A DNA stretch of 35,287 nt from contig CAZUFC010000092.1 in NCBI GenBank assembly GCA_964619725.1, forward strand, positions 1-35,287, read 5' to 3'. Made by a program: the position numbers and the translations under genes. Position 1 is the first letter of the stretch; each line of letters opens with the position of its first letter. Below the pieces are notes generated by a model that was not told the DNA's origin, ran no database searches, and worked only from the letters and a program-made list of their open reading frames with translations. Of this stretch, positions 1-24,887 are shown in pieces. This stretch comes from an uncultured bacterium (GTDB taxonomy: Bacteria; CSSED10-310; CAZUFC01).

Positions 1-133
1 TAATTGTGAAGTTTTTTGCCCCCCCTATATCCCCCCGCAGGCGGGGGGACTTTGTATTTACAAGAGTTTTTTCGAACGTCTAAAGTTTTTTTCGTCAAAC
101 ATTTCACAATTTTTTATTAGCGAATGTCAGGAG
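1..133. repeat. Right part of a small palindromic dispersed element (CCCCCCGC-AG-GCGGGGGG hairpin) cut by the window start
   Basis: Hairpin at 30-49 lies inside an inverted repeat, aattgtgaa (2-10) and ttcacaatt (103-111). tgtcaggag (125-133) is the reverse complement of ctcctgaca (35207-35215). Bases 1-16 equal 35272-35287. Confidence 0.55.
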
Positions 134-143
134 ATGTGAAATT

Positions 144-389
144 GGCGCTGATCAAAAATGGCCATGTCAGTGTTACAATTTCTCAGTTTGAATCCTCCGC
201 TCTCGTGCTCAGTGCAGCGGTAATCGTAATCGAACCATTGGTCTGATCTGTACAGTCGTTTGAAAGCAAAGCAGGGCTATTATTTGAATCGATCGATTAC
301 GATTACGGGCACGAGCGCCGCTCCGCTGAGCGCGATAGTTCTGGTTGATTATCGAGATCACAATTTGTAACCCCTGTTTGATCAGTCCC
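144..389 (-). mobile_element. MITE-like element, interior type 1 (gattac/gtaatc hairpin interior)
   Basis: Imperfect terminal inverted repeats ggcgctgatcaaa and tttgatcagtccc. The interior is a close reverse-complement match to 27265-27488 and a partial match to 28580-28686. No transposase is encoded. Confidence 0.7.
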
Positions 390-500
390 GAAAAATTTTT
401 CCAAATGTAGCACATAGGCAGCATCAGACTTTTGCGACCATTAAGAGGCGCAACCGTTTCCTTTTTGTTATCCATTCACTATCAATAAATTAATTCAATA

Positions 501-545
501 CAGCCGGAAGGACTTGAACCTTATACCTCATGATCCACAGTAAGC
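501..545 (-). pseudogene. Degenerate tRNA 3'-half remnant (tRNA-His-like, GTG loop)
   Basis: Minus strand reads ...ttactGTGgatcatgaggtataaGGTTCAAGTCCttccggctg: a T-arm (aagg/cctt around TTCAAGT) and a CT-GTG-GA loop. There is no D-arm or acceptor-stem partner. Confidence 0.35.
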
Positions 546-639
546 GAAGAAAAATTCCCGGAAAAAACAAATCCATCCCCAGTGCGACGGCGATAATTTT
601 CAATCAACTAAAAATCCTGTAACTCGTAGAATATACTAA

Positions 640-713
640 TGCGCCCAGCAGGATTCGAACCTGCGGCCTTCGGATTCGTAGTCCGACGCTCTATCCAGCT
701 GAGCTATGGGCGC
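640..713 (-). tRNA. tRNA-Arg (ACG)
   Basis: Minus strand gcgcccatagctcagctggatagagcgtcggactACGaatccgaaggccgcaggttcgaatcctgctgggcgca forms a canonical cloverleaf. CCA is not encoded. Confidence 0.97.
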
Positions 714-735
714 TTGTTTTTTTGAGGCGGGTAAC

Positions 736-828
<93 letters not shown>

Positions 829-898
829 GCTTGTTATATTTTTATTCTGTTATCAAGGTCATGATGAAGCCTTTTCCGGCTTCTTCCTGTCCTTTTTA

Positions 899-981
899 CG
901 GAGGGAGTAGGATTCGAACCCACGGTCCTTTCGGACTCCGGTTTTCAAGACCGGCGCCTTAAGCCACTCGGCCATCCCTCC
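899..981 (-). tRNA. tRNA-Ser (TGA)
   Basis: Minus strand ggagggatggccgagtggcttaaggcgccggtctTGAaaaccggagtccgaaaggaccgtgggttcgaatcctactccctccg, with variable-arm hairpin gtcc-gaaa-ggac. CCA is not encoded. Confidence 0.97.
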
Positions 982-993
982 AAGTCCTCGTTA

Positions 994-1021
994 ATCATAA
1001 TGCATTTCGGTAGGATTTCAA
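994..1021 (-). promoter_or_regulatory. Putative sigma70 promoter of the tRNA cluster
   Basis: Minus strand TTGAAA-16 nt-TATGAT just upstream of tRNA-Ser(TGA), with an A/T tract (UP-element-like) at 1029-1039. Confidence 0.55.
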
Positions 1022-1044
1022 GCCTTTAATAAAAAAAAAGTGAT

Positions 1045-1178
1045 ATTTTGTTTTCGATTGCGATACCAGAGCCGATTACCGGAACAGACTGCCGGATCAA
1101 AAATAGGACGCTGAGTCTGTTTTGGACAATGATCAGTTTTGCTTCGGGAGATTCTTTGATCCCTGCCTGATCAGTCCC
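1045..1178 (-). repeat. Degenerate remnant of the MITE-like element (interior type 2)
   Basis: tttcgattgcgatacc...gccgattaccggaacagac resembles the reverse complement of 28366-28544, and the stretch ends in ctgatcagtccc. Confidence 0.45.
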
Positions 1179-1190
1179 GGCTTCTTTCGC

Positions 1191-2462
1191 TCACGGAAAT
1201 TCAACCGCTCCGCCCAGGTAGGGTTTCAACGATTCCGGAATTCTTATTTTGCCCTCTTTCGTCTGGCCGTTCTCCATCAGGGCGGCCATGGTTCTGCCCA
1301 GGGGCAGCGCCGGGGAGGTCAGTACGTGAACGTATTCGGGTTTATCAAAAGGCTGGTTTTTAAACTTCACTTCCGCCCTGCGGGATAAGAAGTCCTCCGT
1401 GTTGCAGCAAACCGCAATCTCCTTGTATTTGTCCAGGCTGGGTATCCAGGCTTCTATGCAGAATGCCTTGGCTGCAGTCAATTTCAGTTCCGGCGCGCAT
1501 AATTCCAATACCCGGTACGGCACTCTTAATAACTCCAGGATATGTTCCACCTCATTCACCATGACGTCCAGCTCATCATACGAAGTTTCCGGAGAAACCA
1601 GTTTCAGAAGATCGATCTGGTCGAACTGGCGGGTTCTTATCAATCCCCTGTTTTCCTTGCCGTATGAACGAAACTGCCTTCTGAAGCACGGCGCGTAGGC
1701 AGCGTATTTCAACGGCAGGTCCCTGTCGTCCAGTATGCGTCCCGCATTCAGGTTCAATAAACCCACTTCCGCACCGGGCACCAGGATATGACGTGAATCC
1801 CTGCACGCAAAAAGCTCATCCGAAAGAAACGGCAACCATCCCGCATTCTTTATCGCCTCGCTCTTGACCAAAAGCGGCGTATCCGCCTCCTTATACCCAT
1901 GCATGCCGGTATGCACGTCCATCATGAAATTCATTAACGACCGCTTTAATCTTGCCCCGTTTCCCTGGAAAACCACGAAATGAGCTCCCGACATCTCGGC
2001 AGCGCTCTCAAAATCAAAAAAATCCAGCGCCTCACCAAGCTCCCAATGCGATCTTACTGGAAAATCAAACTCCGGCCTGCTTCCCCACTCCTTCACAAGA
2101 TCGTTCTTTATATCCGGCGGACCCGCCGGCACTGTATGATGATGAATGTTCGGCAAATCCAGCAGTATCTCGTTTATCCTCTCGTCAAGCCGCTTTAAAT
2201 CCTCCTCCAGCCCCTTGATCTTCGCTGACGCGTCCCGCACTTTTTCCCTTAAATTCGGCGCATCCTCGCTTTTCATCACAATCTCACCCACTCGATCCGA
2301 TATCCTGTTCCGGTAACTCCTCAACTCTTCTACCTGCTGAAGCACCTTCTTCCTCTCCGCATCCAACTGAATGAATTCATCAAGATCAAGCTTCCGTTTT
2401 CTCTCCTTCAACTTCTTCTTGATCGCCTCTATGTTCTCCTTGACGAACCTGGGACTGAACAT
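1191..2462 (-). CDS. serS: Seryl-tRNA synthetase homolog with remodelled/degenerate serine-binding pocket
   Basis: 423 aa colinear with bacterial SerRS: N-terminal coiled-coil arm, LPN..H..VP, PCFR, GLIR.QFD, GRT.AAL.EN.Q..G.I.IPE.L.PY. The TAE, KVE, EISSCSN and TLNGSGLA motifs read GAE, QID, EIAVCCN and VLTSPALP. Confidence 0.9.
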   Translation of the reverse strand: MFSPRFVKENIEAIKKKLKERKRKLDLDEFIQLDAERKKVLQQVEELRSYRNRISDRVGEIVMKSEDAPNLREKVRDASAKIKGLEEDLKRLDERINEILLDLPNIHHHTVPAGPPDIKNDLVKEWGSRPEFDFPVRSHWELGEALDFFDFESAAEMSGAHFVVFQGNGARLKRSLMNFMMDVHTGMHGYKEADTPLLVKSEAIKNAGWLPFLSDELFACRDSRHILVPGAEVGLLNLNAGRILDDRDLPLKYAAYAPCFRRQFRSYGKENRGLIRTRQFDQIDLLKLVSPETSYDELDVMVNEVEHILELLRVPYRVLELCAPELKLTAAKAFCIEAWIPSLDKYKEIAVCCNTEDFLSRRAEVKFKNQPFDKPEYVHVLTSPALPLGRTMAALMENGQTKEGKIRIPESLKPYLGGAVEFP

Positions 2463-2644
2463 ACAAGCCGCCCTCCTCTTTCAGGGTTGATTCTCAATCG
2501 TTACATTAGCGCTCCTGATCATTCAAGGCAAGTCTTGTTGAATCTGCCGCATGTTCTGCGTTGCTGCCGCATGTGATCACACCGGCAGGCGCCGGGACAG
2601 TAAAAATAAAACGACACGATAACCATAAATTTTTACAAAAAAAT

Positions 2645-2673
2645 TTGAATACGGGAAAAGAGGGCGCTATAAT
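2645..2673 (+). promoter_or_regulatory. Putative sigma70 promoter
   Basis: TTGAAT-17 nt-TATAAT, ending 77 nt upstream of the ATG at 2751. Confidence 0.6.
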
Positions 2674-2750
2674 GGTTATGAAGTTACCGCCTGGGGAATG
2701 GTGGCGATAGAGAAGCGAGCGAATAGACATTTATCGGTTGCAGCGGGGGC

Positions 2751-3872
2751 ATGTTTGATATGGAAAAAGATGGAGAATGGTCCGTTGGAAAGCTGAAAGA
2801 GGGTGAGATATTCTGGAGTCCTGACATAGGGGGACTGCTGGATCATGAATTGAAGCCCGGTTGGACTGGTGTAACGACATCATGCGATGCGACGAAGAAT
2901 TATATCAACGACTTTTTTATCAGAGCGTCATATTTAAGGAGCGGAACGTTAGAGGAGGCGGGAAAGAGTGAACTCACGTACAGGGATACGATATATTCGA
3001 GGCCGTTGAAGTTGTGTAACATAACGGTAAGAGACGAGGAGACGGAATCCGACTGGTTATCTGTGGACGGACGGAGTTTCATTGAGGTCAGAATGGATGA
3101 ATTGCTGGCAGAAACAGTTCCGAAGGCGCTGATAAATTTACCGGGATTCCGGGAGTACAAGGGTTTTTCTCATACGCGAATAATCTACAAATCGAGTTGC
3201 GGCGTCTTCCGAATATCGATCATAAAGGAAAGGCATAAGACATTGCTGGAGATAGAGGATTGGACGGGTTGTTATTTTGACGGGATGACGGCGATGTCGA
3301 ACATACCGTTTTATTTGCCGTATTTGATCGAGCCGGGAGACCAGAATATTTTTCATACGATAAAGTTAAAGGGGCATGTGCCCGTGCAGAAGTATTTCGG
3401 GGACATGCTGCTTGAAGCTTACGAGAATAAGGGTTACAAGCTTGTTTTCATCCCGACGTCTCATCAGTATTTAGCTTATTATTGCATGAAAGAGGCCACA
3501 TTTTCAGGCGACTGGCGATCCGACAAGACCGATACGCAGACCTTTACGGATTACAAACTGTTCATACATCCTTGCCGTCTGTCGGCGGGCGAGGAGATAA
3601 AGCTGTATGTATTTTCTGCTCCGCAGACTTACAAGCTTGAATCAGGGGCTTCCTGGACATTGATGCGTGATATTCCCCAGAAGAACCAGAAGCCGCTAAC
3701 GGTATTCCTTCGAAACCTTTTCGCCTGCATGCCGTTCAAGGATGAATTCCTGAATCAGAAGCAGATAGTATTCGTATACAGGGGAAGAAACATAGTAACG
3801 GCAATGGGAATGGCTGATACTCTTTACGGGACGTTCATAGCGGTATCGTTTCCCGATATGGGCGAGATATAG
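2751..3872 (+). CDS. Hypothetical protein (373 aa, no recognised family)
   Basis: Long ORF with a near-consensus promoter upstream and protein-like composition. No motif recognised. Confidence 0.75.
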   Translation: MFDMEKDGEWSVGKLKEGEIFWSPDIGGLLDHELKPGWTGVTTSCDATKNYINDFFIRASYLRSGTLEEAGKSELTYRDTIYSRPLKLCNITVRDEETESDWLSVDGRSFIEVRMDELLAETVPKALINLPGFREYKGFSHTRIIYKSSCGVFRISIIKERHKTLLEIEDWTGCYFDGMTAMSNIPFYLPYLIEPGDQNIFHTIKLKGHVPVQKYFGDMLLEAYENKGYKLVFIPTSHQYLAYYCMKEATFSGDWRSDKTDTQTFTDYKLFIHPCRLSAGEEIKLYVFSAPQTYKLESGASWTLMRDIPQKNQKPLTVFLRNLFACMPFKDEFLNQKQIVFVYRGRNIVTAMGMADTLYGTFIAVSFPDMGEI

Positions 3873-3976
3873 AGCTGAAATGGATCTCAACCGCTTCGCA
3901 GGCGAGGAAAAGGAGTTCTTTCCGGCGAAGATGAGGCTGGAGCAGATTATGAGGAAAACCTGGAGACGTACGAGCA

Positions 3977-5134
3977 ATGAAAAATTTTGAAGGAATAGAG
4001 TATCTAATATGGGCGAAAGCTGCGGATGAAAAGGCGCTGGGAAGGCAAGGGAGATACAATCTTCACGGGAGTTATATTGAGTATCCGGCGGAGTTGCTTC
4101 TGGAGGATATACGGCATCGTTATTTCGACGAATTGATGTCGTTGATCCGGGCATCGAATCCGTGGGGGCATCCGGAGTTGATCAAATCGATCAAATCCTG
4201 TTACGGCGTTTCAGAGAGGGAGATTCTGACGACGCAGGGAGCATCATCGGCCATTTTTCTGGTCTGCATGTCGTTTCTTTCTCCCGGTGATCATGCTATC
4301 GTCGAAAAACCCGTGTATGAACCTTTATATGCGGCGCCTGTTTATGCCGGGGCTGAAACGGATTTCATCCAGCGCAGACCGGACGATTACGGGATTGACC
4401 CGGATGAGCTGCGAAGGCTGATGAAGCGTGAGACCAGGCTTATCGTCCTGACGAACATGCATAATCCGAGCGGAAGAATGTTGAGCGATGAAAGGTTGCT
4501 GGAGCTTTCGGAGGCGGTGCGCGAGCAGAACGGCGACATAAGGATACTGGTTGATGAGGTATATCATGATTATGCGATGGAGCTGCAGAAACCTTCGGCG
4601 CTGCTGGATGGGCCGTTCATTTCGATAAACAGTTTTTCGAAAGTTTACGGATTGAGCGATTTACGTTGCGGCTGGATCATCGCCGGGCATGAAGATATCG
4701 AGAAGTTCAGCCGGCTGCAGGTCCTGGCATCCAATATAGGCTCGCAGTTGAATGAATCCCTGGCCGTAATCGTGCTTCGCAATCAGAAGCGCTATCTTCA
4801 ATATGCCGGGGATCGTCTTGCGACGAACAGACGAATCCTGCAGGAAGCGATCTCTCCCCTGGCTGATGAAGGTCTTATAGAAGGAAGCATCCCCGAGCAC
4901 GGCTGCATTTATTTTCCCAAGCTTTGCGGCATTGGAGATACGCATGAATTCGCGGCCCGCCTGGCTGCCGAACGGGGCGTATATGTCGTTCCCGGCCGGT
5001 ATTTCCAACAGCCTGACGGCATCAGAATAGGTTTCGGAGGCAATCCGGAAAAATTGAAAACAGGCCTGAGTCTTCTGTCTGAGGCATTAAGAGAATCGCC
5101 ACGGTTTGAAGAAGCGTTGCCTCAATCTGATTAA
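3977..5134 (+). CDS. PLP-dependent aminotransferase, class I/II
   Basis: Motifs TQGASSAI, NMHNPSG, VDEVY and SFSKVYGL.DLRCGW (PLP lysine), plus the C-terminal IRIGFG arginine. RBS ggag lies upstream. Confidence 0.93.
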   Translation: MKNFEGIEYLIWAKAADEKALGRQGRYNLHGSYIEYPAELLLEDIRHRYFDELMSLIRASNPWGHPELIKSIKSCYGVSEREILTTQGASSAIFLVCMSFLSPGDHAIVEKPVYEPLYAAPVYAGAETDFIQRRPDDYGIDPDELRRLMKRETRLIVLTNMHNPSGRMLSDERLLELSEAVREQNGDIRILVDEVYHDYAMELQKPSALLDGPFISINSFSKVYGLSDLRCGWIIAGHEDIEKFSRLQVLASNIGSQLNESLAVIVLRNQKRYLQYAGDRLATNRRILQEAISPLADEGLIEGSIPEHGCIYFPKLCGIGDTHEFAARLAAERGVYVVPGRYFQQPDGIRIGFGGNPEKLKTGLSLLSEALRESPRFEEALPQSD

Positions 5135-8153: not shown

Positions 8154-9746
8154 TCATAGCCCGGCGGATTTCAGATTCTCCAGGTCATATATTTTTATCA
8201 GGTTGAGATAGGGGTCTCGTTTTTTGAGATACTCAACGTCATCCGGGAGGTGATTCTCGTAGAGAATGGAGAAAAAATCCACGTATGGATTCTGAATGAC
8301 TTTAACCGGCAGGGCATTGGCGTCGATCAGTCTTGTTGATTTGTGGTCCCAGACGTATTTTTGCCAGTCCATCATGAGGTACCTGATATTTTCGGCGTCA
8401 GCCAGCTTTAAAACCTGTTTTAATTCGGGCGGCGGATAAATAGCGTTTCCGCTTCCCATGTATAGGGCCATAATCGGTTTCATTGTGGTCATTACCCTGG
8501 TCTGGTTTTCTTTTTTCAGAAATTCTGCGCATTGGCGGTAACCTGATTCCAGGTTCAATATTTGAATCATCCTTCCTGCTGAAGCTAATGGAATCGAAAT
8601 CAGAATCGCCAGGGATAGAATAACGGGCCAGGGCTTTTTTATTTTCATCTTTAACAACGAAGAGGCAAAAACAGCGCAAGCCAAAGCTGCGAAAGGGGAT
8701 ATGATCGTTATTGTCCTGGCGAGCCGGGTGCTTAGTATCGAAAAAAATGCCAGAGGGGCCAGGATTGACGTCAGAATGATCAGCGAACTTGTATTTTTTA
8801 TTTTTTTGATCAGTATGAGCATCCCCCCGGCCAAAGCCGTCATAAATACCGGACCGTTAAATCGATACAAAATGTTCAGATAGAAGAAGGGATGCTGAAA
8901 GTTAAAACCGGCCTCCCGGTCCATTTTCTGAAAAAACAGCGGCAGATAATGAGGAGAAGCGAATTTGACGTAATGGGGAGAAAAAAGGATGTAGTAAAAA
9001 GCATCCAGAATAAGCAGCGATAAAATAAAACCCACTCCGAAACAAATGATAACGGCGGCATTTTTTTTCAGACCTCCCCAACTGCGATCACTCATGACCT
9101 CCTTGAAGATGACGACGGCAACCAGGGCCAGGGGAAAAGGCAAAACGCGATAGGAGCAGCCTATAGTCCATCCGAAAAAGAGGCCGGCGACTATTACTCT
9201 TGAAGGCTTCAGTCCGCCTGTTGCTGCATGAGCCAGCAGAAAGGCTGAGAGAATAAAGAAAAATTCTGCGGCGATTTCGTGCAGCCCGGTCCTGGCGTAA
9301 AACAGGTGATAATTGGAAAACCATAGAATAAAAGCGGCGGCAGCTCCTGTAAACCGGTCGTAAAAGCGTTTTCCCCAGAAATAGAGCATGAATCCTGCGG
9401 CCAGCGAAAAGAGCAATGAAGCGATATGCCCGGAATTTTCCATCTTACCCGTCAGTTTTTGAACGACAGACAGGGCCAAGACGAATCCGGGCTTCCCCAG
9501 CATGACGGGTAAACCTTCAAATTGCGCGGGATCGGCGCATGGAGTCTGCCCGATAGTTTCACAGAACCATTGAGGCAACCGCCACGAAACGAATCGAGCG
9601 CCCATGATGAATAATCCCTCATCCCAGAAAAACAGCCCTTTACCGGTGATGTTGTAAGACCAGAGAAAGATGTGAGCGACACAGGCGATGATCAGTATGA
9701 ACCGCGCTATTGCATCGTTTTTATTCTGAAAAAAGGATTTTTCCAT
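8154..9746 (-). CDS. GT-C membrane glycosyltransferase (ArnT/PMT_2, GT39/GT83-like)
   Basis: First TM helix followed by FWDE (acidic motif), then KPG, many TM helices and YARTGLHE. The probable start MEKSFF at 9746 overlaps the 3' end of the dnaE-like gene by 26 nt. Confidence 0.87.
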   Translation of the reverse strand: MEKSFFQNKNDAIARFILIIACVAHIFLWSYNITGKGLFFWDEGLFIMGARFVSWRLPQWFCETIGQTPCADPAQFEGLPVMLGKPGFVLALSVVQKLTGKMENSGHIASLLFSLAAGFMLYFWGKRFYDRFTGAAAAFILWFSNYHLFYARTGLHEIAAEFFFILSAFLLAHAATGGLKPSRVIVAGLFFGWTIGCSYRVLPFPLALVAVVIFKEVMSDRSWGGLKKNAAVIICFGVGFILSLLILDAFYYILFSPHYVKFASPHYLPLFFQKMDREAGFNFQHPFFYLNILYRFNGPVFMTALAGGMLILIKKIKNTSSLIILTSILAPLAFFSILSTRLARTITIISPFAALACAVFASSLLKMKIKKPWPVILSLAILISIPLASAGRMIQILNLESGYRQCAEFLKKENQTRVMTTMKPIMALYMGSGNAIYPPPELKQVLKLADAENIRYLMMDWQKYVWDHKSTRLIDANALPVKVIQNPYVDFFSILYENHLPDDVEYLKKRDPYLNLIKIYDLENLKSAGL

Positions 9747-12171
9747 CGTTGATATGGGTCGCGCCTTCGGCTTCCGGATTACCCTCAAACTTTATCCGGT
9801 TAATTTCCAGATACTGCCTCAGGTAATTCTTCAAAACCTTTTTGCGATTTTCAGGGGTAATTTTAGTGATTTCCTGTTTGAGCGCCGCGCAGGTTTCGAG
9901 GGGATGCCTGACAGAGAGAGAGGCCAGCCGGCAAGTAAGTTTCGCTTTTGCCAGATAATGAGCTTCTGAGAGTAAAAACGGAATCATAACGATCAACATC
10001 GAGAGCAATTTTGCGGCAGTATCGTTTTGAATATTTTTCGTTGCGCATCTTTTCAGGAAAATCGTCCGCAGACGGTTACGCAAGTCCGCATCTTTAGCAG
10101 TCTCTTTCATGTATAAAGCGGCATGAGCGGCGTCCCAATTCATTATTTTCATTAATATTCGTTGCACCTGTTCCCGAAAGATAAAAACGTCGTCAGTATA
10201 TTGAATGATGTTTTTGAACCAGGCGGGCATTTCATTGGTTAATTCCGAGAAACGCTTTGGAGCGAGAGGCAATTTGGAGACCGGATCAATATCGTTTAAG
10301 GCCTCGGCATAAGCCACTCTTTTTAAATCCAGGGTTTCGGACTTGTGCAGGGGCATAGTTTGTGACTCATCCAGGTGTAAAAGTTCCCAGGCGTATTTTC
10401 GAGTCAAGGCTTCCAGGTTCTGTGAATCATTTTCCGGTGTCCGTTTAAAGGAGAATCCCGGTTGTTTGTTTCTTATTTTAGTTACGATATTTTCCAGAAG
10501 GTCCATCTGCGCAGGCGTATATATGTTGAAACCCAGGAAGCCGATGGATTTCAGGTCCTTAAAAGTCCAACCGGCAGCAGTGCGTCCATCATGTGCAGAA
10601 GAGAGCGGCAATGTTTTCTCCATGTATCGAGGCAGCACGATAAGCCCCGTTTCATCATGAATTATTTTCGTCGGAAGGTTCTCGAGTTTTCGAGCATTCC
10701 TCAGGGCCCGCCGGCTTTCTTCAGAGCTGTCGCTGATTTCCTTCAGAACATCGTTTTCTTCAAGCGCGGTTTCCAGAAAAGTGACGTCGGTATCCGGAAC
10801 AGCATCAAGCATTCTGGATTTCAATTCTTCACCGAACTCAGAATTTTGAAATGACAAGAGCAGGCATTCTCTTGTTTTTAATCTTTGAAAAGATGCAGAT
10901 TTGATCAATTTCTCCGTGGAATACAATAGCTTCAGCAACTCATGAAATTCTTTTCTTCCTTTGCGGCTCAGGACGAGAGGGATATCCGGCGAGGTCAGGT
11001 AGGGGACGTCGAGCTTGTTGATGAAATTCTCAAAGAAGAGGTCATTTTCAATCGGATTCACACCCGTCAAACCCAGGATATAAGCCATAAGACTTGAAGG
11101 ACAATCGCTGAATGAGGGACCTGCAACGACGCCTCGTTCTTCCAGGGCATCCATAATTTCTGAAACGATCAGGAAATATTCCGTACCGCCGGATTCTTCT
11201 ATCTGTTTCAACTCGTGCCGGCGTCTTGCGACGAATGCCGGGTCTTGTCCCATTTCATATTTTGAGGCTAACTCTTCAATTTTATTTTGAAGCATGCGGT
11301 AAGGTTTCGGCAGGCGCATAGCTTCTGTTCCCGGCCAGCATTTTTTATCGAATTCAAAAAAGTTGAGACATTTATCCGCTATTGTCTTCGAATATTTAAG
11401 GGCATCCTTAATATCGTTGAACGTTTCCTGCATTTCGCGGGAGCTTTTAAACCAGGCGTTTTTCCATGGGACAGGAGCGTTATCCGGATGCGATTCATGA
11501 GTTGAGTTTTCTGAAAGTATTTTAAAGGCTTCGCAGTCTTCCTGCATAAGGAAGCGGCAATTATTGGCGGCGACCAGGGGTATGCCGAGCTGCCGGGCGA
11601 AATCAGAAAGCACCGAGTTGATCCAGGATTCGGCGGGATGTCCTATGCGCTGCAGCTCAAAAAAGAAGAAATCTTCACCCATGATGTCCCGCATTTCCGA
11701 CACGACGCCGAATAATTCTTCGACTCTTTGCGAAATAATCATTCTGGAAACGACGCTGTTATGGCATCCTGACAGAGCGATCAAACCGTCGTGATTTTCC
11801 TGGAGCTGATTCACGCTGATGATGGGCAAATTCATTGAATTGGAGCAGTCGCCTTTTCCGAGGAGTGCGATGAGATTTCTGTATCCTGTGGGGTCAGCGG
11901 CCAGCACGGTCAAATGGAAAGGATTGTCGGCGACTTCCTTAAGATGGGGATAGCAGGAAACGTTAATGAGCAATTCGCAGCCCGGAATAGGCTTAATGGA
12001 ATGGTTGCGGGCTTCCCGTGCGAATTTGACCAGGCCGTTGACATTCGCCAGGTCCGTTACGGCGATGGCTTCCATGCCGAATTCATAAGCTCGGCGAATC
12101 AAATCGGGTATTCTGATGGTGGAATAACTGAAGCTGTATTCGGTATGAACATGCAAATGAACGAAATTCAA
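9721..12171 (-). CDS. dnaE: DNA polymerase III alpha (DnaE) homolog, truncated and predicted catalytically inactive
   Basis: N-terminal PHP domain (HLHVHTEYS, AVTD, KPIPGCE, HLTVLA) followed by palm/thumb/fingers-like regions (EYFLIV, SLMAYILGLT, FREQV). PDIDxDF reads PDIPLVL and KxDFLGL reads GFNIY. It ends at 816 aa with no HhH/OB/C-terminal domains. TTG start with GGAGG RBS. Confidence 0.88.
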   Translation of the reverse strand: MNFVHLHVHTEYSFSYSTIRIPDLIRRAYEFGMEAIAVTDLANVNGLVKFAREARNHSIKPIPGCELLINVSCYPHLKEVADNPFHLTVLAADPTGYRNLIALLGKGDCSNSMNLPIISVNQLQENHDGLIALSGCHNSVVSRMIISQRVEELFGVVSEMRDIMGEDFFFFELQRIGHPAESWINSVLSDFARQLGIPLVAANNCRFLMQEDCEAFKILSENSTHESHPDNAPVPWKNAWFKSSREMQETFNDIKDALKYSKTIADKCLNFFEFDKKCWPGTEAMRLPKPYRMLQNKIEELASKYEMGQDPAFVARRRHELKQIEESGGTEYFLIVSEIMDALEERGVVAGPSFSDCPSSLMAYILGLTGVNPIENDLFFENFINKLDVPYLTSPDIPLVLSRKGRKEFHELLKLLYSTEKLIKSASFQRLKTRECLLLSFQNSEFGEELKSRMLDAVPDTDVTFLETALEENDVLKEISDSSEESRRALRNARKLENLPTKIIHDETGLIVLPRYMEKTLPLSSAHDGRTAAGWTFKDLKSIGFLGFNIYTPAQMDLLENIVTKIRNKQPGFSFKRTPENDSQNLEALTRKYAWELLHLDESQTMPLHKSETLDLKRVAYAEALNDIDPVSKLPLAPKRFSELTNEMPAWFKNIIQYTDDVFIFREQVQRILMKIMNWDAAHAALYMKETAKDADLRNRLRTIFLKRCATKNIQNDTAAKLLSMLIVMIPFLLSEAHYLAKAKLTCRLASLSVRHPLETCAALKQEITKITPENRKKVLKNYLRQYLEINRIKFEGNPEAEGATHINDGKILFSE

Positions 12172-12568: not shown

Positions 12569-15500
12569 TTAACGCCTGTAACGTCTCATAACGGGTATCC
12601 CCATCAGCAACGACAGGCATGCGACGAGCAGACCGGCGCCGAAACTTCCGACTGCAGGTACGGGCGGCAGCGGAGGAGTTGTGGTGGCGGTCGGCGTTCT
12701 CGAAGGTCTTATAGTAGCGGTTCTGGTCGCAGTGGGCGAATATGTCGCAGGAACATCCGTGGGCGTAGAAGTAAGCGTAAACGTCGGAGGGACTCCTGTG
12801 GGCGTTCGAGTGGGCGTATGCGTCGGCGGAACATCAGTAGCGGTTCGAGTGGGCGTATGCGTCGGCGGAACATTTGTGGCGGTTCGGGTGGGAGAATACG
12901 TAGGCGGGACGTCTGTCGGCGACATCGTGGGACTTCTTGTGGGCGTTCTGCTGGGCGGAACATCGGTAGGAGTATTCGTAGGAATATTCGTGGGCGAAAA
13001 TGTCGGTATTTGCGTCGGCGTGGAAGTGGGAGGAACAGGAGAGGGAGTATCAGTCGGTAAGGGGGTGAAGGTGGAAGTAGCTGTCGGCGTAGGTTCCTGC
13101 GAGGGGCAGAGGAAATCGAGCACGGCCTGCAATACAGCGTTTCCATTGGCTGCATCAGCGTTATAAATAGGAACCCAGTCGGTGGCGAAGAAGACGGTTC
13201 GCCAGGTTCCTCCGTCGGTGTCGATGTTTGTAGGCTGGTTATTGCCGTCGACAAAGGCCGCTGACACGGAATTTTCGACACTCGGCGACACCAGATCAGG
13301 ATACTCCGAAAAATCCGAAGGATATTGCAGTTCCAGTTGTCCGAAGCCGTCCCCAACAGGATCGCCCGCCTGTCCTTCCAGGGGAGATACGGCTTCATCG
13401 CCGCCGTACCCGCTCAATCCCAGGTAATTTTCTCCGAAATTCGTTATTCCCATATCGTAAAGATAATCCTGGCTGCTCAGGAAAAGCCGTCCGCCATTGT
13501 TCAGATACGTAGTCAAAGCGGCTTCGTCAGTCGAATTGGGTCCGGCCATGGGATCGTTCCATCCGAAGGCGTATTTATCACCGGAGAACCAGATAACCAC
13601 ATCATAGGGGGCCATTTGAGCCGCCGTAGGTCCGTCCTGCGAACCTGTTCCGACGTTAAAGATGTCGTAACCGTAGCCCAGGTCGTCCAAGGCTGCGGTG
13701 AAGTAGCCGCGCACTCCGGGATTATTGTTATCGTCGTCGACCAGGAGAATGGAGCAGTCATTCGGCAGGGGCGTAGGCGTCGGTGAAGGTGTGCCGGTGC
13801 TTGTCGGCGAGGTAGAAGTAGGCGAAGGCGTCGGCGGGGAAGTTCCGGTAGGCGATGTGCCCGTGGGAGTTGACGTCGGCGTAGTCGTTTCCGTAGGAGC
13901 CGTGCCCGTGGGAGTTGACGTCGGCGTAGTCGTCGGAACGTCAGTCGGCGTATTGGTCGGCAGTGAGGTATTGGTCGGCGTATTGGTCGGCAGGGGCGTG
14001 AAGGTCCTGGTAGGCGTATGGGTCGGAGTTAGCGTGGGACCTAAAGTCGGCGTACGGGTCGGAGTATACGTTAAAAGAGCAGTCGGAGTCCCGGTCGGCG
14101 TAGAGGTTAAAATGGCGGTAGGGGTTCGAGTCGGGGATTGAGTCGGAGTGCGCGTGGGCGTCCTGGTCCTGGTGAAAGTGGGCGGTACAGTGGGGGTTTT
14201 CGTAGGCGTGCGCGTCGGCGTTCTTGTAGCTGTCGGAGGCGGCGTATAATTGCAGTCGCCGTAAATTCTTACCAACTGATATCCGTTACGGGCTGAATTG
14301 CCGCTGGTTGTGAAGGTTCCCGCCCCTGCGACGTCGCCTTCATAATACAAGAGGTAATCGCCGCTTCCGTTCAGACCGACCGAAGCGCTGCCGGTCGGAA
14401 AATAAATGGCGGCCAGATCGCCGGGGTGCACCTGGATATTCAAAGTGTCCGGAAAATCATTCACGCCCGAACTCACATATACCTGTGAAGAGCCGCCCAC
14501 GTAGCTGTACTGATTGTTGCCCAGCGGACGGATGATCCTCAAGGCTATATAACCCGCATCGACTGCGCGGACCGTCCATCCCGTCAATGTTCCGTATTCG
14601 TTGACCGACCCGGTTCCGGAACCGTCGTCGTAATAGTAGGTGGTGTCGTCGTAACTATTGGTATCGTTATATGATTCGTAAGGGTTGAACCCGGCCCAGA
14701 TGCAGGGCGTGGGAGTGTAAGTCGGCGTAACTGTAGGCGTACTTGTAACGGTCGGCGTTCCCGTTCGGGTGGGCGTATAAGTGGGCGGTCCCTGCGTGGG
14801 AGTCGGCGTGGCGGTTCCCTGGATGCATTGCAGCCATAAGTCGGGGTTACCCCATAGGTTCCATTCGCACATTTCATACGTCACGTCGTCCCAGCCGTTG
14901 TTCTGGTATACGGTTTTCATGGCCAGTTGATGCGCCGCTCCCTGACTGTAATTTCCCGACGTCACGTTCGTCGTGAAATAATAATCCAGGGATTGACTGG
15001 AACCGTCTCCGGGATCGGACCATGCATGAGTCCCAAGCGCTACCTTAGTGGCGCCTACGAACCCTACGGCTCCCTGTTGCAGCATCCTCATACCGATATT
15101 CGTATAATCCGTATCCGAATTGCTGCAGGCATCAGCGAAAACAATGGCCGGATAATTGTCGTTCAAACTGCTGCAATCGGCCGAATCGATAAAACTGGGC
15201 GAACCGTTACCCAGGATGTGGCTGGCATGGTAAGACCCATGCCCCGCCCAGTTCACGAAAGCGAATGTCCCGTTCGACCACTGATTGACCACGTTGCTCC
15301 GCGTCAAGTTATAATCGCAATCATAAGAGGACCAGTAATCTGAATTTTTCTCGTACATCCTGGTCTTCGACCATTCGAACATATACCAGGGACTTACTTT
15401 CTCCTCCATTAAAACAGCATTATCCGTATCGGCCCAGAAATATGAACCCAGCAAAAGAATGTTCTTCTTGAATGAAGGATCATTGTTCATCTCATAAGCC

Positions 15501-16657
15501 TGGGACTTGGAGCAGATACTTTGCACTGTAGAAGAAGTACTCCAGGGAATGCGCCCCACATTAACCTCATAATAATAAGTCACGTTGTCGGAATCCTGCC
15601 CGAAATATCCGTTATTGTTGCTGTCCCACGACTGATTGTCAGGCTGGGATAATTCAGCGAAATAAAAATCCGTCCTGGGATTTCCGTAACCTAAATCCTG
15701 GTAAACTTCCCGCATAGGCACATCGCTGTGATGCCCCACGAAAAGCACATCCTCTATCCCCCATTCCGCAGAAGGATATTTATCCCTTAAAAAATTGCGC
15801 ATCTTCTGCGCCAGGTCCACGCCCGAATAATTCGAATTGATCCAGCTCGTCGTCACAACCTGTACGGTGTGTCCCTTGCTTGTCTCCCAGTTTACCAGCG
15901 TATCTACCGAAGAGGAGAGCGAACTCGTGGTTATAATCACGAAATCGTACAGTCCCTTGCGAGCCGGCGCTTCCGGATACATCTCTTTTGCCTGGTCGTA
16001 ATTCAGTATCAGTTCCGCAGCAATCTTCTCCATGCGGGGCGAATGATCGGAAAGAACAGCCGAATCGATTTTCTGCTCATTAATCGTATACTCGATTTTT
16101 ATAGTTATGTCCGTATGATGGATGAGTTTCCCGGATTGAGGCCTGTATTGAAAAGGAGTGATTCGCACGTCCGCCAGGTTGTAACGTCTGAATCCCGTCT
16201 GTATTAAGTATTCGCCGATCTCGGCCGGATACGCCTTATCCGTCCCGTAAACCTCCTTATAGTTCTCCTGGTACCTCCTGGTCTGCTTCGCTTCCTCCTC
16301 TTGATTGCGCACAGAAATAATCCCCACCTTCGGACAGGGCTTGATCTTAAACCGGCCTTCCAAAACTTCCGTTTTTCCCGATTCCGCCTTCACCGATTCG
16401 ATTGCAGCCCCCGGAGGTATCGCAACCGCAAATATCCTGGACGGCAACTTCGGTTCTCCCGGCTGATTGGTGAACCCGAAATCGTCTATCCTGACATTAT
16501 GAAATTCCGCTTTTTCCGTGATCGAATATTCAAAATCAGGCAAAGAAACCTCCATTACCTCGGCGCCGGCCTGAGACGCAAAAAAGAAAAAAGCTGCCGC
16601 AGTGATCGTAAACAATGTGCTGAAAAGTCTGTATCCTCTATTGTTATCGCATTTCAT
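12569..16657 (-). CDS. Secreted C25 (gingipain-like) cysteine peptidase with propeptide, Pro/Thr linkers, two accessory modules and C-terminal membrane sorting tail
   Basis: Signal peptide (..AGA/E), propeptide GEPKLP and ITPFQY, C25 core VLFVG, TDFYF, VGRIP, His in WAGHGS and Cys in ADACSN, WNLWGNP. Tail [16 protein letters not shown]. Start MKC at 16657 is supported by GGAGG; the ORF track starts at 16684. Confidence 0.9.
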
Positions 16658-16800
16658 CCCATAAAACCTCCCCGCTTGAGACAAGCGACATAAGAAACTA
16701 AAAAAAACAGGAATGATTAAACACTTAATTCATCATTCTCGCCATTACCGTTTTAATCCTATTTCAAAAAAAAATCAAAATCGCAGTTCAATTTATAAGC

Positions 16801-16836
16801 AAAAAAAAGCGGAGGAAAAAATCATTTCCTCCGCTT
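16801..16836 (-). terminator. Rho-independent terminator after the metallopeptidase gene
   Basis: Minus strand aagcggaggaaa-loop-tttcctccgc followed by T8, 11 nt past the stop codon. Confidence 0.85.
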
Positions 16837-16847
16837 ATTTATCTCCG

Positions 16848-19800
16848 TTATTGAGTTTTTTTACGCCGGATAAGCGGCGCGCCCAGCAGTAAGGAGAGGC
16901 CCAGGATGAGAACACCGAGCCCGAAAGTACCTGCTGCAGGAACCGGGGGAAGCGCATAGGTGGGTGAAGCAGTGGGAGTTCTTGACGGTCTTCTGGTTTC
17001 AGTAGGAGTAAGAGTTTCTGTTGGCGGAACGTTTGTAGGTGTTCTGGTGGGGGTATAGGAAGACGGTATGCCGGTCGGGGTCCTCGTGGGAGTTAATGAC
17101 GGCGGTACGGCGGTCGGGGTTCTCGTGGGAGTCAATGACGGCGGTATGCCGGTCGGGGTTCTCGTGGGAGTTAAAGTAGCGGTGTTTGTGGGAGACTCGG
17201 TGGGTATTTGCGTGGGAGTTCGTGTGGGTGAAGAAGTCGGAGGAACCGGTGAGGGCGTATTCGAGGGCGCCGTGGTAGGAGTGAAAGTAGGAGCGGGGGT
17301 CGGTTCCTGAGAAGGACAGAGGAAATCGAGTACAGATTGCAGCAAGGCTTCTCCATTAGCTGCATTAGCGTTGTAGATCGGAACCCAGTCAGTACCGAAG
17401 AATACTGTGCGCCAGTCGCCGCCGTCGGTATCGATGTTTGTCGACAGACCATTGCCGTCGACAAATGCGGACGACACGGTTTCATTTGAGCTGGGCGACA
17501 ATACATCCGGATATTCTGAAAAATCGGCCGGATAGCTGAGGGCCAATTCTCCGAATCCGTCTCCAACGGGATCGCCGGCCTGACCGTAAATCGGGGATAC
17601 TGCAGCATCGTTATCGAAACCGGTAAGACCGAGGTAATTTTCTCCGAAGCTTGTAATCCCCATATCGTAAAGGTAATCCTGGCTTGACAGGAAGAGCCTT
17701 CCGCCGTTGTTCAGGTATGTAGTGAGCGCTGCTTCATCAGTCGAATTCGGTCCTGCCCTGGGATCGCTCCATTGCGGGGCATATTTATCGCCTGAGAACC
17801 AGATGACCACGCTGTAAGGAGCCATCTGGGCCGCTGACGGACCGTCCTGGGAACCCAGTCCCACGGTGAAAACGTCATAAGAATATCCCAGGACGTCGAG
17901 AGCGTTGCTGAAGTATGTGCGTACGCCGGGATCATCATTGTCGTCGTCGACCAGCAGTATGGTGCATTCTCCCGGTAAAGGCGTCGGCGTGGGAGTGCCG
18001 GTATTGGTAGGTGAGGTGGAAGTGGGCGTGGGCGAGGGTGATTGAGTGCCTGTAGGTGATGTTCCCGTTGGGGTTGACGTTGGTGTCGTCGTTTCGGTAG
18101 GCGCTGTTCCTGTCGGACTTGCCGTGGGCGTATCCGTGGGAAGCCCGGTCGGCGTATCTGTCGGTATGGAGGTGTTTGTCGGCGTGTTTGTAGGTAAGGA
18201 AGTAAAAGTCCTGGTCGGCGTTCTCGTCGGCACTGACGTGGGCGTTCTTGTGGGACTCAGAGTCGGCGTTAGTGTCGGTCCTAGCGTAGGCGTTCGGGTG
18301 GGAGCGTTCGTCGGCGTTCGGGTCGGCGACAGAGTGAATGTAGCCGTTGGAACCAGGGTGGGAGTTCGGGTCGGCGTGTATGTTAAAAACAGGGTCGGCG
18401 TTCGGGTGGGAGTGCGCGTCGGAGTTCGAGTGGGCGTGAGAGTTCTCGTAGGCGTCAGTGTCGGCGTTCGGGTGGGAGTACGAGTCGGAATCAATGTCGG
18501 CGTGAAGGTGGGGACCAGAGTGGGAGTTTTTGTGGGCGTCCTCGTGGGGGTACGCGTCGCCGTGGGAGCAGGCGTATAGTTGCAATCGCCGTAAATTCTT
18601 ACCAGTTGATAGCCGTTACGGGACGAATTGCCGTCGGACGTGAAAGTCCCGACTTCCGCTACGTCGTTCTGATAATACATCAGATAATCGCCGCTGCCGT
18701 TTAAAGCGACCGAGGCGGTTCCTGTCGGGAAATAAATGGCCGCCAGATCGCCCGGATGTACCTGAATATTCAATGAATCAGGAAAATCGTTGATTCCTGA
18801 AGAGACATAAACCTGCGATGAACCGCCCACATAACTGTATTGGCCGCCGCCCATAGGACGGATTATTCTTAACGCGATATATCCTGCGTCAATCGCACGG
18901 ACCGTCCAGCCGGTCAATGTTCCATATTCGTTGACCGAACCCGTTCCCGAACCGTCGTCATAATAATATGTCGTGTCGTCGTATCGGTTTGAGTCGTTAT
19001 AAGACTGATAGGGGTCAAAACCGGCCCATATGCAGGGTGAAGGCGTGGGAGTCGGCGTTCTGGTGGGCGTTCCTGTTCTGGTGGGAGTATAAGTGGGCGG
19101 GCCCTGCGTGGGAGTGCGCGTAGGCGTGGACGTAGGACCTTCCGAAATGGTTATGGAAAGGCAATTGGATGCAGCGCTTCGACAATCCGAATCAGAACCG
19201 ACAGCCTGAACTATATAATAATACGTCGTTCCTATGGCGACTTCCGAGTCGGTCCAGTTTGTAGAAGAAGTTGTATCCATGGGTATCCAACCGAAACCGC
19301 ATCCGATGTCGTTCCGGAAAATTGCATAGTAAGAGGCATTGCTGGTCGGAGACCAGCTCAGGTATGCCGAACCTCCCGGGGATGAACCGCTGATTGACGG
19401 TGTGCCTATCGTCGGACATTGAGAATAACAACTCGGCGACAAGCCGCAGGCAATCCCGTGATTATTGAAATGCTGCCATAACCGGCAACCGTGAGGCGTA
19501 CCGTTGGAAAGATTGCCGTCATCGTCGTCGATTCCAAGTATTACATTGTAATAACTGTCGCTGTTGCATCCGTTGACGTTGGCCGACGGATTGCACTGAC
19601 CGCCTGAAACCACCTGGTATGCCGCATCCAGAGAATTTATTCCTGAATACCACATAAGATCGGCCCACAACCAGCCGCCGTTGTCGCCGATAACCCCTCG
19701 AACCGCCGCAATGGCATCCCACCACGCCTGGCTCGCTATCAGACTCTCGCAGTGTCCTTCATATCCCATAGGACCCATGTAACCGTAATAGGGACAACTC

Positions 19801-21464
19801 CAACGGTCGCAATCGGCCGGATAGGATGCGATATTGGACACCGTTACATTCGATGCCGTGTTGACGTCTCTGACGCCGCTGCAACTGGAATCGCAACCGA
19901 AATCGCAGGGCGTTCCGGGTCGAAAATTATGCCCGATGCATGATTCGTGATTGAACAGAAATGCGCCCGTATCCGCATAAGCCTCTCCTGATCCCATGTC
20001 CGCAGAAAAACCGTTGCCGTCGTAGGTGTCCAGCCCATGCGCCGCTTCATGTAAAATTACCGAAGCAACTTCACCGGTGTTTGAACAACCGCCTCCCGAT
20101 TTGAAAAAATTAATCGTTCCCGAACTCCAGTAAGCATTGCATGTATCATTGATATTAACGTTCGAAGTCAAATTACCGTTGATCCATGATATCCCCGTGT
20201 TGTATCCCCTTATCTTCTCCTTCAGCCAGTTAACCTGGTAAAACACTGTCCGGGTCGCATGCGTATTTCCGGAACCTCCATATCCGGGCGTCGTGCAGTC
20301 GGTTCCGCCGCTGGAACCGAAAGACAAATCGCCGGGAGACGAAGACGTGCTGCGATAAATAGAACCGCAATTGTCGTCCAGATTTACGTATGCTCCGCTC
20401 AAAGAACAGGACGCCGTGCCTCCGGAATAATTGTAATTGCCGCCCTTATCAGTCTGCTTCGTTCCGCCGTTGCTGACGTTCGCAAATGGGAACGGCCTTA
20501 CAACCTCAGTTCCCGACAGATTCGTCACAGGATAAATCCCGCCGTCTACCGTAGCGAATTTACGACTGTCCTGCAAAACCAGAATCTCTCCAGTGTTCGC
20601 ATCAACCAAAGCCTGCCAAACAACTGCGCTGTTCGGACTCCTTACGTATAACTCATAAACCAGCCTGTGATCGTATCCCGTTCCGTCCTCTCCTTTGTAA
20701 GGCTCGCCTAACTCACATTTTTCGCCTTCAGCCGCCGTCGGTATGATTAACAATTCTATCCCCTGCGTGATCTCGAACTCCCCGGGAAATTTCTTGCTCA
20801 AATATGACGAAACTTCATTGAATGCCTCTTCAGGGCCCTTCTGAGGCTTCGTCGATATACTCACGTTTTCATAAAAATGCGTCCCGAACTGAATTAAATT
20901 GCCGTTGTTGATCCTGAAAAAAACGTGACTTTTCCTTACTCTTACTCCATCAACTTCCTGTATGAATCTTATCGAACTGTATCGATCGCTTACATACGAT
21001 CCTTCCCTGTCCAACGTCAACTGATTCTGGTCCACATTGAATAATTCTTCATGCTCCGCCATAAATTTGCGCCCCAGGAATCCATAAAAATCAACGTCGA
21101 TCGGATCGCCCAACGTCAATCCATACTCCCTGAGGTATTCAGAGCCTAACGAATTTCCGTCGCCCGGAACCCAGGGTATGCCTGAACCCTGTATAATATC
21201 GGGACGCCCGCTGCGGTGATCTATCGCTATGTCCCATTTCATGCCGTGCTGAGCCTGAAATTCCGCCCACGACGGATCGTTCCAGCTCGCGCCTTCCTTA
21301 TAAGAATGATAATCCGCAATCGGTCTTACCAGAACCGACGGATTGTGAATCTGGGCCGCACGTATCTGTTCATACTCCGATCCCTCTGGAACCGTCACGG
21401 CCTGAACGCCTGAAATTAAAATCAGCAACGCCCCCAGAAGAACTCCGCCTTTCCATATTCTCAT
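16848..21464 (-). CDS. Secreted zinc metallopeptidase (M4/M36-like gluzincin) with FTP/PepSY-like propeptide, FN3-like domain, Pro/Thr linkers, two accessory modules and C-terminal sorting tail
   Basis: Signal peptide (VQA/V), propeptide QEVDGVRV and [18 protein letters not shown], third ligand in GEAYAD, FN3-like [18 protein letters not shown]. Tail [23 protein letters not shown]. Confidence 0.9.
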
Positions 21465-24883: not shown

Positions 24884-24887
24884 CGTC

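Follow-up and report, generated by a model that had tools for sequence, protein, structure and literature searches.

A seryl-tRNA synthetase homologue with altered serine-binding residues in an uncultured bacterium that carries a second, canonical copy

The window analysed here, meaning the whole stretch of 35,287 nucleotides, is contig CAZUFC010000092.1 (C92) of assembly GCA_964619725.1, a metagenome bin of an uncultured CSSED10-310 bacterium from a microbial mat, 90.9% complete with 6.5% contamination. Near its start, on the minus strand, lies P0001, a full-length homologue of seryl-tRNA synthetase (SerRS) in which most of the residues that contact serine are replaced and those that contact ATP and the backbone are kept; a second, canonical SerRS gene (serS) is present on another contig of the bin, C58. 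Serine recognition by P0001 is very probably altered or lost. The gene, its ribosome-binding site and the relevant parts of the protein occupy the following positions.

1191 to 2462, minus strand: SerRS-like gene P0001, from the list of open reading frames (ORFs) and its translation, 423 amino acids plus stop.
2471 to 2480, minus strand: Shine-Dalgarno-like, purine-rich AAGAGGAGGG, read from the sequence, 8 nucleotides before the ATG.
2145 to 2462, minus strand: N-terminal coiled-coil tRNA-binding arm, residues 1-106 (PF02403, Seryl_tRNA_N, 85 bits).
1764 to 1778, minus strand: TxE serine-binding loop P-G-A-E-V, residues 229-233, with Thr replaced by Gly230 and Glu232 kept.
1605 to 1688, minus strand: motif 2, residues 259-286, CFRRQFRSYGKENRGLIRTRQFDQIDLL, with R261, F280 and the SYGK..RG loop kept.
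1383 to 1469, minus strand: strands 332-360, KAFCIEAW ... KEIAVCCNTEDFL, with E337, E348 and N354 kept.
1293 to 1328, minus strand: motif 3, residues 379-390, HVLTSPALPLGR, with H379, L381, G389 and R390 kept.

The frame opens with ATG and contains zero internal stops; the original prediction, made from the letters of the window, had described an intact 423-residue ORF with a coiled-coil arm, and both the translation and the PF02403 match bear this out. The class II core is recognized by PF00587 at residues 223-398 (103.6 bits in Pfam), and the NCBIfam serS profile TIGR00414 matches residues 1-416 with 403.6 bits. Since this score passes the equivalog cut-off of 301.65 bits, annotation pipelines would name P0001 "serine--tRNA ligase". 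The profile of the methanogen-type SerRS gives no match to P0001 at E<=0.001. An AlphaFold model of the protein reaches a mean predicted local distance difference test score (pLDDT) of 93.1 and a predicted template modelling score of 0.89, with low values only in the flexible motif-2 loop (265-270); the arm is modelled as helices 27-63 and 69-102 and keeps the near-invariant Asn52. The model superposes on E. coli SerRS 6r1m_A with a template modelling score of 0.96 and a root-mean-square deviation of 1.7 A, while a comparison with solved SerRSs gives 379.7 bits to the Aquifex enzyme 2dq3_A, with core gaps of just one or two residues. Three further runs of the same mat study yielded contig pieces that carry 0 differences over the parts of the gene that they cover; one of these pieces (X2 record 10, 1217-1754) extends across motifs 2 and 3, which shows that the unusual residues are no assembly slip.

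The extent of the change was gauged in an alignment of 269 homologues, comprising the best 119 non-self matches of one search, 149 of another and the C58 copy, in which 65 positions are conserved in at least 90% of the sequences. P0001 keeps 49 of these 65 and changes 16, against a median of 2 deviations from consensus among the other homologues. All 16 changes fall within five catalytic stretches, namely the TxE loop, motif 2, the E-x-W strand, the EISSCSN..FQARR strand and motif 3: T230G in the TxE loop; E263Q, A264F, G265R, H278R, K282Q, V283I and E284D in motif 2; D335C, S350A, S351V, S353C and Q359L in the strands at 332-360; and N382T, S384P and A387P in motif 3, which is also altered at T380V. 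These stretches hold 18 kept and 16 changed conserved positions, compared with 31 kept and 0 changed elsewhere (Fisher p = 3.9e-6, with motif windows that were picked after the data had been seen, though they are the standard motifs). The five motif readings given by the original prediction (VPGAEV, FRRQFR, RQFDQID, EIAVCCN and VLTSPALP) are all present in P0001, and the four residues it listed as kept, the motif-2 Arg (R261), the Phe (F280), the Glu of EI (E348) and the motif-3 Arg (R390), were found as described. Gly at the TxE Thr, Gln at the motif-2 Glu, Asp at the HQFDKVE Glu and Pro at the motif-3 Ser occur in 0 of the 39 nearest relatives listed, and the C58 SerRS has none of these four replacements either.

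Structural work on the E. coli enzyme allows these changes to be sorted by role: the seryl moiety is contacted by T237, E239, R268, E291 and S391, F287 stacks on adenine, a Glu binds Mg, and G396-R397 close motif 3 (10.1101/586255). The E. coli-numbered residues were mapped through an alignment to the 430-residue enterobacterial SerRS 6h9x_A, with an offset of 7 after residue 221.

T237 corresponds to G230 in P0001: changed.
E239 corresponds to E232: kept.
R268 corresponds to R261: kept.
E291 corresponds to D284: changed.
S391 corresponds to P384: changed.
F287 corresponds to F280: kept.
The Mg-binding Glu corresponds to E348: kept.
G396-R397 correspond to G389-R390: kept.

Three of the five published seryl contacts are therefore replaced (G230, D284 and P384). 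We take the Glu and the Thr/Ser changed here to be the residues that bind the serine hydroxyl in Thermus SerRS. The class II "arginine tweezers" are described in the accessible part of PMC5919687 as two Arg gripping the adenosine phosphate, and because R261 and R390 are both kept, those of P0001 are intact. Had the 16 changes been scattered by chance over the 34 conserved positions in the motifs, the probability of keeping all five ATP and backbone contacts would be about 0.03, and that of keeping these five with the other three changed would be 0.005, the latter a post hoc figure. The motif-2 loop, most of which P0001 retains, contacts the acceptor stem in Thermus SerRS.

A whole-genome search with P0001 returns exactly two SerRS genes, P0001 itself and C58:49135-50382, whose products are 33% identical. 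The C58 SerRS, of 416 amino acids, bears the canonical motifs TSEV, FSTCYRKEAGSYGKDTRG, HQFDKVE, ELTSCSN and TLNGTAVAIGR, scores 525.4 bits against TIGR00414 and has an arm of its own (PF02403, 99.3 bits). The second canonical serS for which the original prediction had proposed to search the genome is thus found, P0001 is not the only serS, and it need not make Ser-tRNA-Ser. Among 14 species genomes of the phylum examined, this is the one genome with two SerRS genes; a second full-length match to P0001 was found in none of 40 other genomes, in which the second-best matches have E values of 4.5e-10 or weaker and are nearly all frames of 570-690 amino acids, that is, other synthetases. The closest relatives of the C58 SerRS are 57-64% identical to it, the named ones coming from Actinomycetota, Wallbacteria, CSSED10-310 and Acidobacteriota bins, and the SerRSs of the same phylum are 41-45% identical. 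In a tree of 68 sequences it sits inside a clade of 99-100% support, and an approximately unbiased (AU) test rejects the two SerRSs of this genome as sisters (p-AU 0.0002, log-likelihood difference 107). The two proteins belong to different SerRS clades, and the C58 copy is foreign in type.

Several checks suggest that C58 and the window contig belong to one genome. The tetranucleotide make-up of both is typical, with distance ranks of 41 and 95 among 211 contigs of at least 10 kb. Genome-wide, ARAGORN finds 45 tRNA genes and one tmRNA, and all 43 tRNA species are single-copy except the usual three tRNA-Met. The bin contains 5 PF00587 cores, the two SerRSs and frames of 593, 624 and 460 amino acids, and none of the other class IIa synthetases (ThrRS, ProRS, Gly/HisRS-type cores) is duplicated. 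C58 also carries single-copy housekeeping genes, such as those for aconitase and ribosomal protein S1; in a kinship comparison of this aconitase, matches were patchy across phyla.

P0001 has diverged far and has nevertheless stayed open. Its terminal branch measures 1.74 substitutions per site, where the median is 0.34 and the sister has 0.59, and as the branch remains long once the motif columns are removed (1.44 against 0.67), the protein is fast-evolving throughout. Stop-creating changes make up 4.6% of the point changes possible in the gene, or 0.063 per amino-acid replacement; had the excess branch alone been neutral, about 31 stops would be expected (probability of none, 5e-14), and even 0.3 neutral substitutions per site would have left 8 (probability of none, 3e-4). 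A very long branch combined with an open frame is incompatible with neutral decay, and the protein has clearly stayed under selection to fold; the unconserved decay that the original prediction had named as grounds for giving up its proposal is countered in this way. No orthologue of more than 45% identity was found in about 15 billion proteins: the best non-self match among 5.8 billion clusters is 45% identical, and P0001 forms its own 50% cluster among 1.84 billion representatives. A scan of genome contigs returned just 4 loci, at 37-39% identity, and a search of the ESM Atlas returned ordinary SerRS clusters only. Population data consist of four DNA runs from one microbial-mat study, in which the locus is present at low depth and the listed pieces over the gene show 0 differences.

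Downstream of P0001, on the same strand, lies a cluster of three tRNA genes.

898 to 982, minus strand: tRNA-Ser(UGA), by ARAGORN and Rfam (tRNA, 61.5 bits), the sole copy in the genome.
736 to 828, minus strand: tRNA-Ser(GCU), by ARAGORN and Rfam, the sole copy in the genome.
640 to 713, minus strand: tRNA-Arg(ACG), by ARAGORN and Rfam, the last gene of the conserved cluster.

The P0001 gene stands 208 nucleotides upstream of tRNA-Ser(UGA), which is followed by tRNA-Ser(GCU) and tRNA-Arg. According to ARAGORN, tRNA-Ser(UGA) lacks an encoded CCA end, which is encoded in the adjacent tRNA-Ser(GCU) and in the counterpart in G001, a genome of the same phylum. In G001 the sole serS, which is canonical, is followed by tRNA-Ser(tga), Ser(gct), Arg, Ser(cga) and Ser(gga); here the same series is split, with the serS-like gene, tga, gct and Arg in the window and cga and gga on contig C56. 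The order serS-tga-gct recurs in G016, from another phylum, and tRNA-Ser genes flank serS at 4 of 22 loci of relatives (G001, G016, G020 and G014). The tga-gct(-Arg) cluster is conserved across the phylum, and is found at G001:C91:1751-2365, G003:C58:37701-37976, G005:C25:21468-21754 and G002:C378:1533-1769. No serS adjoins it in G002, G003 and G005, and no serS remnants were detected by the tRNA-Ser clusters of G002, G003, G004 and G005 (tblastn E>1). The original prediction had placed P0001 directly upstream of two tRNA-Ser genes and called this notable; the position is correct, but the emphasis does not hold, as the canonical serS of G001 and the serS of G016 lie likewise. Adjacency to tRNA-Ser is an inherited arrangement of ordinary serS genes and gives no clue to a new role.

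These observations can be assembled into the following account. P0001 would be the serS that the lineage inherited, still at its old place before the tRNA-Ser(UGA)-tRNA-Ser(GCU)-tRNA-Arg cluster. The gain of the second, canonical SerRS of another clade on C58, which would now do the housekeeping, may have freed P0001 from Ser-tRNA-Ser synthesis; its residues for reading the serine side chain would then have been replaced, with selection maintaining a folded protein of the SerRS type. Through the replacement of Thr by Gly, Glu by Asp, Ser by Pro, Thr by Val and Ser by Val, the pocket would have gained room and lost polarity, and a pair of arginines is newly placed at its rim. Canonical serine activation is very likely not what P0001 does. 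It would be, in this account, still an ATP-using, tRNA-docking class II ligase that no longer recognizes serine and whose amino-acid pocket selects another substrate. This reading is favoured because the ATP and backbone contacts and the motif-2 loop are selectively retained, and a ligase of changed substrate, with ATP and tRNA binding kept, can be given a probability of about 35%. The original prediction had left the choice between a pseudo-synthetase and a ligase for a new substrate; the second canonical serS, the replacement of three of five seryl contacts and the retention of the ATP residues agree with its premises.

A narrower form of the changed-substrate reading is doubtful. In it, P0001 would hold on to those tRNAs whose variable arm is long (tRNA-Ser, perhaps tRNA-Sec) but charge them with a non-serine amino acid, having come to do so through xenologous displacement of serS; it might then be a natural, dedicated mis-acylating synthetase serving a tRNA-dependent pathway or a recoding route. 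The idea of phosphoserine on tRNA-Sec, suggested by the two new arginines, was considered and set aside: SelA is present (480 bits) and the 90.9% complete bin gives no match to SepSecS, which points to the ordinary bacterial route there and leaves the phosphoserine idea without support.

Codon usage may bear on which copy is the older. GC content at third codon positions (GC3) is 0.634 in the P0001 gene (1194-2462, minus strand), which ranks at the 99.5th percentile among 2412 ORFs of 400 amino acids or more (median 0.526, standard deviation 0.048) and exceeds the value of each of the 14 neighbouring ORFs examined (0.51-0.59). The C58 serS lies at the median (0.526), and its codon score at the 84th percentile, against the 24th for the P0001 gene; AAG and GAG are preferred in the P0001 gene, and AAA and GAA in the C58 serS. 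The G001 serS has a GC3 of 0.67. High GC3 in P0001 is not an effect of expression, since the highly expressed S1 gene has a GC3 of 0.485. In the tree, P0001 pairs with the G001 SerRS with a support of 81 in the Shimodaira-Hasegawa-like approximate likelihood ratio test, or 67 without the catalytic motif columns. A further genome of the same phylum and of similar size, G004 (9.2 Mb), has a single SerRS (L039, G004:C140:12818-14056) at the base of the foreign-type clade on a branch of 1.52, and no trace of a second serS copy was seen in it; G004 may represent the completed form of the same serS replacement, although its placement is unsure.

Several of these points weigh against the account given above. 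Its historical part is exposed to the GC3 value, which fits a foreign or unusual history of the P0001 gene better than simple vertical descent, and to the weak support (81 and 67) of the P0001-G001 grouping on a long branch; P0001, not the C58 copy, could be the later arrival, from a G001-like donor, although something else could equally hold the third positions of the gene. The simple story of an ancestral copy is weakened by the GC3 anomaly, and the functional reading of P0001 is unaffected by it. That C58 and C92 share one cell is suggested by composition and single-copy counts, within a metagenome bin. As regards function, the substitutions of P0001 are shared by no orthologue, so their conservation is unsupported; no RNA run is among the runs found to contain the locus; and the window holds no biosynthetic or carrier-protein context near the gene. 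Finally, E263Q in fRxE and S350A, S351V and S353C in EISSCSN touch the ATP and metal side of the site, where the second Ser of EISSCSN helps to bind the metal in Thermus SerRS, so that adenylate formation may be crippled, which favours a non-catalytic protein.

Such a protein, a pseudo-synthetase that forms no aminoacyl-adenylate and in which arm and core still bind tRNA-Ser, is a serious if unlikely alternative. It could work as a homodimer, whether in a chaperone, sequestration or sensor role, or it could pair with the C58 SerRS in a heterodimer like that of the metazoan mitochondrial protein SLIMP. A canonical partner is indeed present, the arm is kept (PF02403, 85 bits; Asn52), the frame is under selection, and the catalytic domain is fast-evolving, as it is in SLIMP according to the accessible part of PMC10570016; the loss of E263 and of three serines in the EISSCSN strand may also hurt ATP and Mg binding, if these residues have the roles we assume for them. 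Nevertheless, the motif-2 Arg and the stacking Phe, which are gone from SLIMP, are both present in P0001, as are the motif-3 Arg, the Mg-binding Glu and the greater part of the motif-2 loop, and all five ATP and backbone contacts would survive random change with the chance of about 0.03 given above. A heterodimer is not a given either: the C58 partner keeps its arm (99 bits), unlike SerRS2-alpha, and the two proteins are 33% identical and of different clades.

It is less likely still that P0001 remains a SerRS, kept as a low-affinity, condition-specific or inhibitor-insensitive back-up like the albomycin-protecting second SerRS, as its sequence might also be read. The serS equivalog cut-off is passed (403.6 against 301.65 bits), Glu to Asp at a hydroxyl-binding position is conservative, the identity of about 30% between the two copies matches that of resistance pairs in the accessible part of PMC9437257, and the frame is under selection. 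On the other side stand the three replaced seryl contacts, the replacements themselves, which occur in none of the 39 nearest relatives listed, and the fact that no antibiotic-type cluster is seen within the 35-kb window. The weight of the hydroxyl contacts is further stressed by an alanyl analogue that gave no inhibition of bacterial SerRS at 1 mM (10.1101/586255).

That P0001 is a redundant relic under relaxed selection, its active-site changes the first damage and its open frame due to luck or to recent origin, is improbable. The changes are unique to P0001, the whole protein has evolved two to five times faster than its relatives, and G004, with a foreign-clade SerRS alone, looks as if replacement there had been finished; but neutral change of this size predicts 20-46 stop codons where zero are seen, the alignment is nearly gap-free, none of the 31 conserved positions that lie beyond the catalytic motifs has changed, the strong ribosome-binding site is intact and the model folds with a pLDDT of 93. 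Least probable of all is a binning artefact in which C58 and C92 come from two organisms and P0001 is a sole SerRS working with a very odd pocket, an idea that the estimated 6.5% contamination of the metagenome bin and the atypical GC3 of the gene would fit, but against which count the typical composition of both contigs, the single-copy tRNA set whose only tRNA-Ser(UGA) and tRNA-Ser(GCU) lie in the window, the unduplicated ThrRS, ProRS and Gly/HisRS-type cores, and the single-copy housekeeping genes (aconitase, ribosomal protein S1) on C58.

The remainder of the window offers little on the role of the gene. No leader RNA (T-box or riboswitch) was found at 1-4000, where only the three tRNAs reach a family gathering score and weaker RNA-family matches overlie those tRNA genes; a promoter and terminator scan gave counts no higher than shuffles. 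An orphan gene of 373 amino acids (2751-3872, plus strand), divergent from the P0001 gene at a distance of 288 nucleotides, matches no Pfam family, and its Atlas leads, to phage tail and baseplate clusters, are all below 0.9. With these sub-threshold leads and a generic aminotransferase adjoining, an attempt to read function from the neighbours was abandoned. Other neighbours include a BNR-repeat protein and an ORF of 816 amino acids (9721-12171, minus strand) in which the PHP and NTPase parts alone represent the DNA polymerase III alpha subunit; it could be a truncated or split dnaE-like gene, and its end overlaps a 544-residue PMT_2-type glycosyltransferase ORF (8154-9788, minus strand). Further along, 12569-21464 (minus strand) encodes a protein of 1371 amino acids with a C25 gingipain-type peptidase and propeptide and one of 1538 amino acids without a Pfam match, and 22179-26840 (minus strand) holds a three-gene operon for PrkA kinase, DUF444 and SpoVR-like proteins, in which the frames overlap or abut.

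Synthetase paralogues with new roles include HisZ, PoxA, SLIMP and the amino acid:carrier-protein (aa:CP) ligases. Compared with canonical serS products (E. coli 6r1m, Aquifex 2dq3), P0001 has the same length, both domains, the fold and the gene's place before tRNA-Ser, and shares the motif-2 and motif-3 arginines, the stacking Phe and the Mg-binding Glu; it differs in having 16 of 65 near-invariant positions replaced, including three of five seryl contacts, and in not being the only SerRS of its genome. SLIMP of invertebrate mitochondria, as far as the accessible part of PMC10570016 describes it, is likewise full-length with an arm, has a fast, altered catalytic domain and resides with a catalytic SerRS. 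In SLIMP, N297 and T316 replace R240 (the motif-2 Arg) and F258 (the stacking Phe) and no ATP is bound (PMC10570016), whereas the adenylate site of P0001 keeps both residues; the partner of SLIMP has lost its arm, whereas the C58 SerRS keeps its own (99.3 bits); and SLIMP is eukaryotic, organellar and born by duplication, whereas P0001 and the C58 copy are of different clades.

The SerRS2 of albomycin producers offers a bacterial parallel in which two distinct SerRSs of about 30% identity are found in one genome (PMC9437257, accessible part). As that review describes it, SerRS2 is active and tied to a producer cluster, which would set it apart from P0001 with its replaced serine contacts; no antibiotic biosynthesis cluster is among the 14 large ORFs of the window, whose contig ends 1.2 kb beyond the P0001 gene. 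The aa:CP ligases descend from the methanogen-type SerRS and are without the N-terminal tRNA arm, whereas P0001 is bacterial-type and has the arm, with no carrier-protein gene nearby. They are SerRS-like, by the accessible text of PMC9437257, and resemble the proposed ligase in being SerRS-derived with a changed use of substrate, in their case another amino acid and another acceptor. SerRS2, SLIMP and the aa:CP ligases are the only SerRS cases in the accessible part of this 2022 review of duplicated synthetases (PMC9437257), and no bacterial full-length SerRS with a rebuilt pocket was found among the listings and abstract openings that full-text searches of the literature returned.

Additionally, six other degenerate SerRS-like proteins were seen among the 150 representatives listed (P0137, P0151, P0181, P0193, P0196 and P0242). 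They measure 355-434 amino acids, five being of 419-434 and P0193 of 355, many of their active-site residues are replaced, and where named they are annotated serine--tRNA ligase, as in a Latescibacterota metagenome-assembled genome. A special kinship of P0001 with these six was rejected, as they are 33-38% identical to it and thus no closer than canonical SerRSs (45%); in several the Mg-binding Glu, or the Glu and loop of motif 2, is missing, a pattern of loss unlike that of P0001. Degenerate SerRS paralogues may be recurrent in uncultivated bacteria.

One possible route to such a protein is takeover by a foreign serS, after which selection preserves the resident gene in its old tRNA operon and only its amino-acid pocket is rewritten. 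Should P0001 activate a different amino acid on tRNA-Ser, it would exemplify synthetase respecification in nature, relevant to the evolution of the code and to the engineering of orthogonal pairs. Set beside the known systems, P0001 appears to differ from each kind in a defining feature and is best called a synthetase paralogue with an altered active site.

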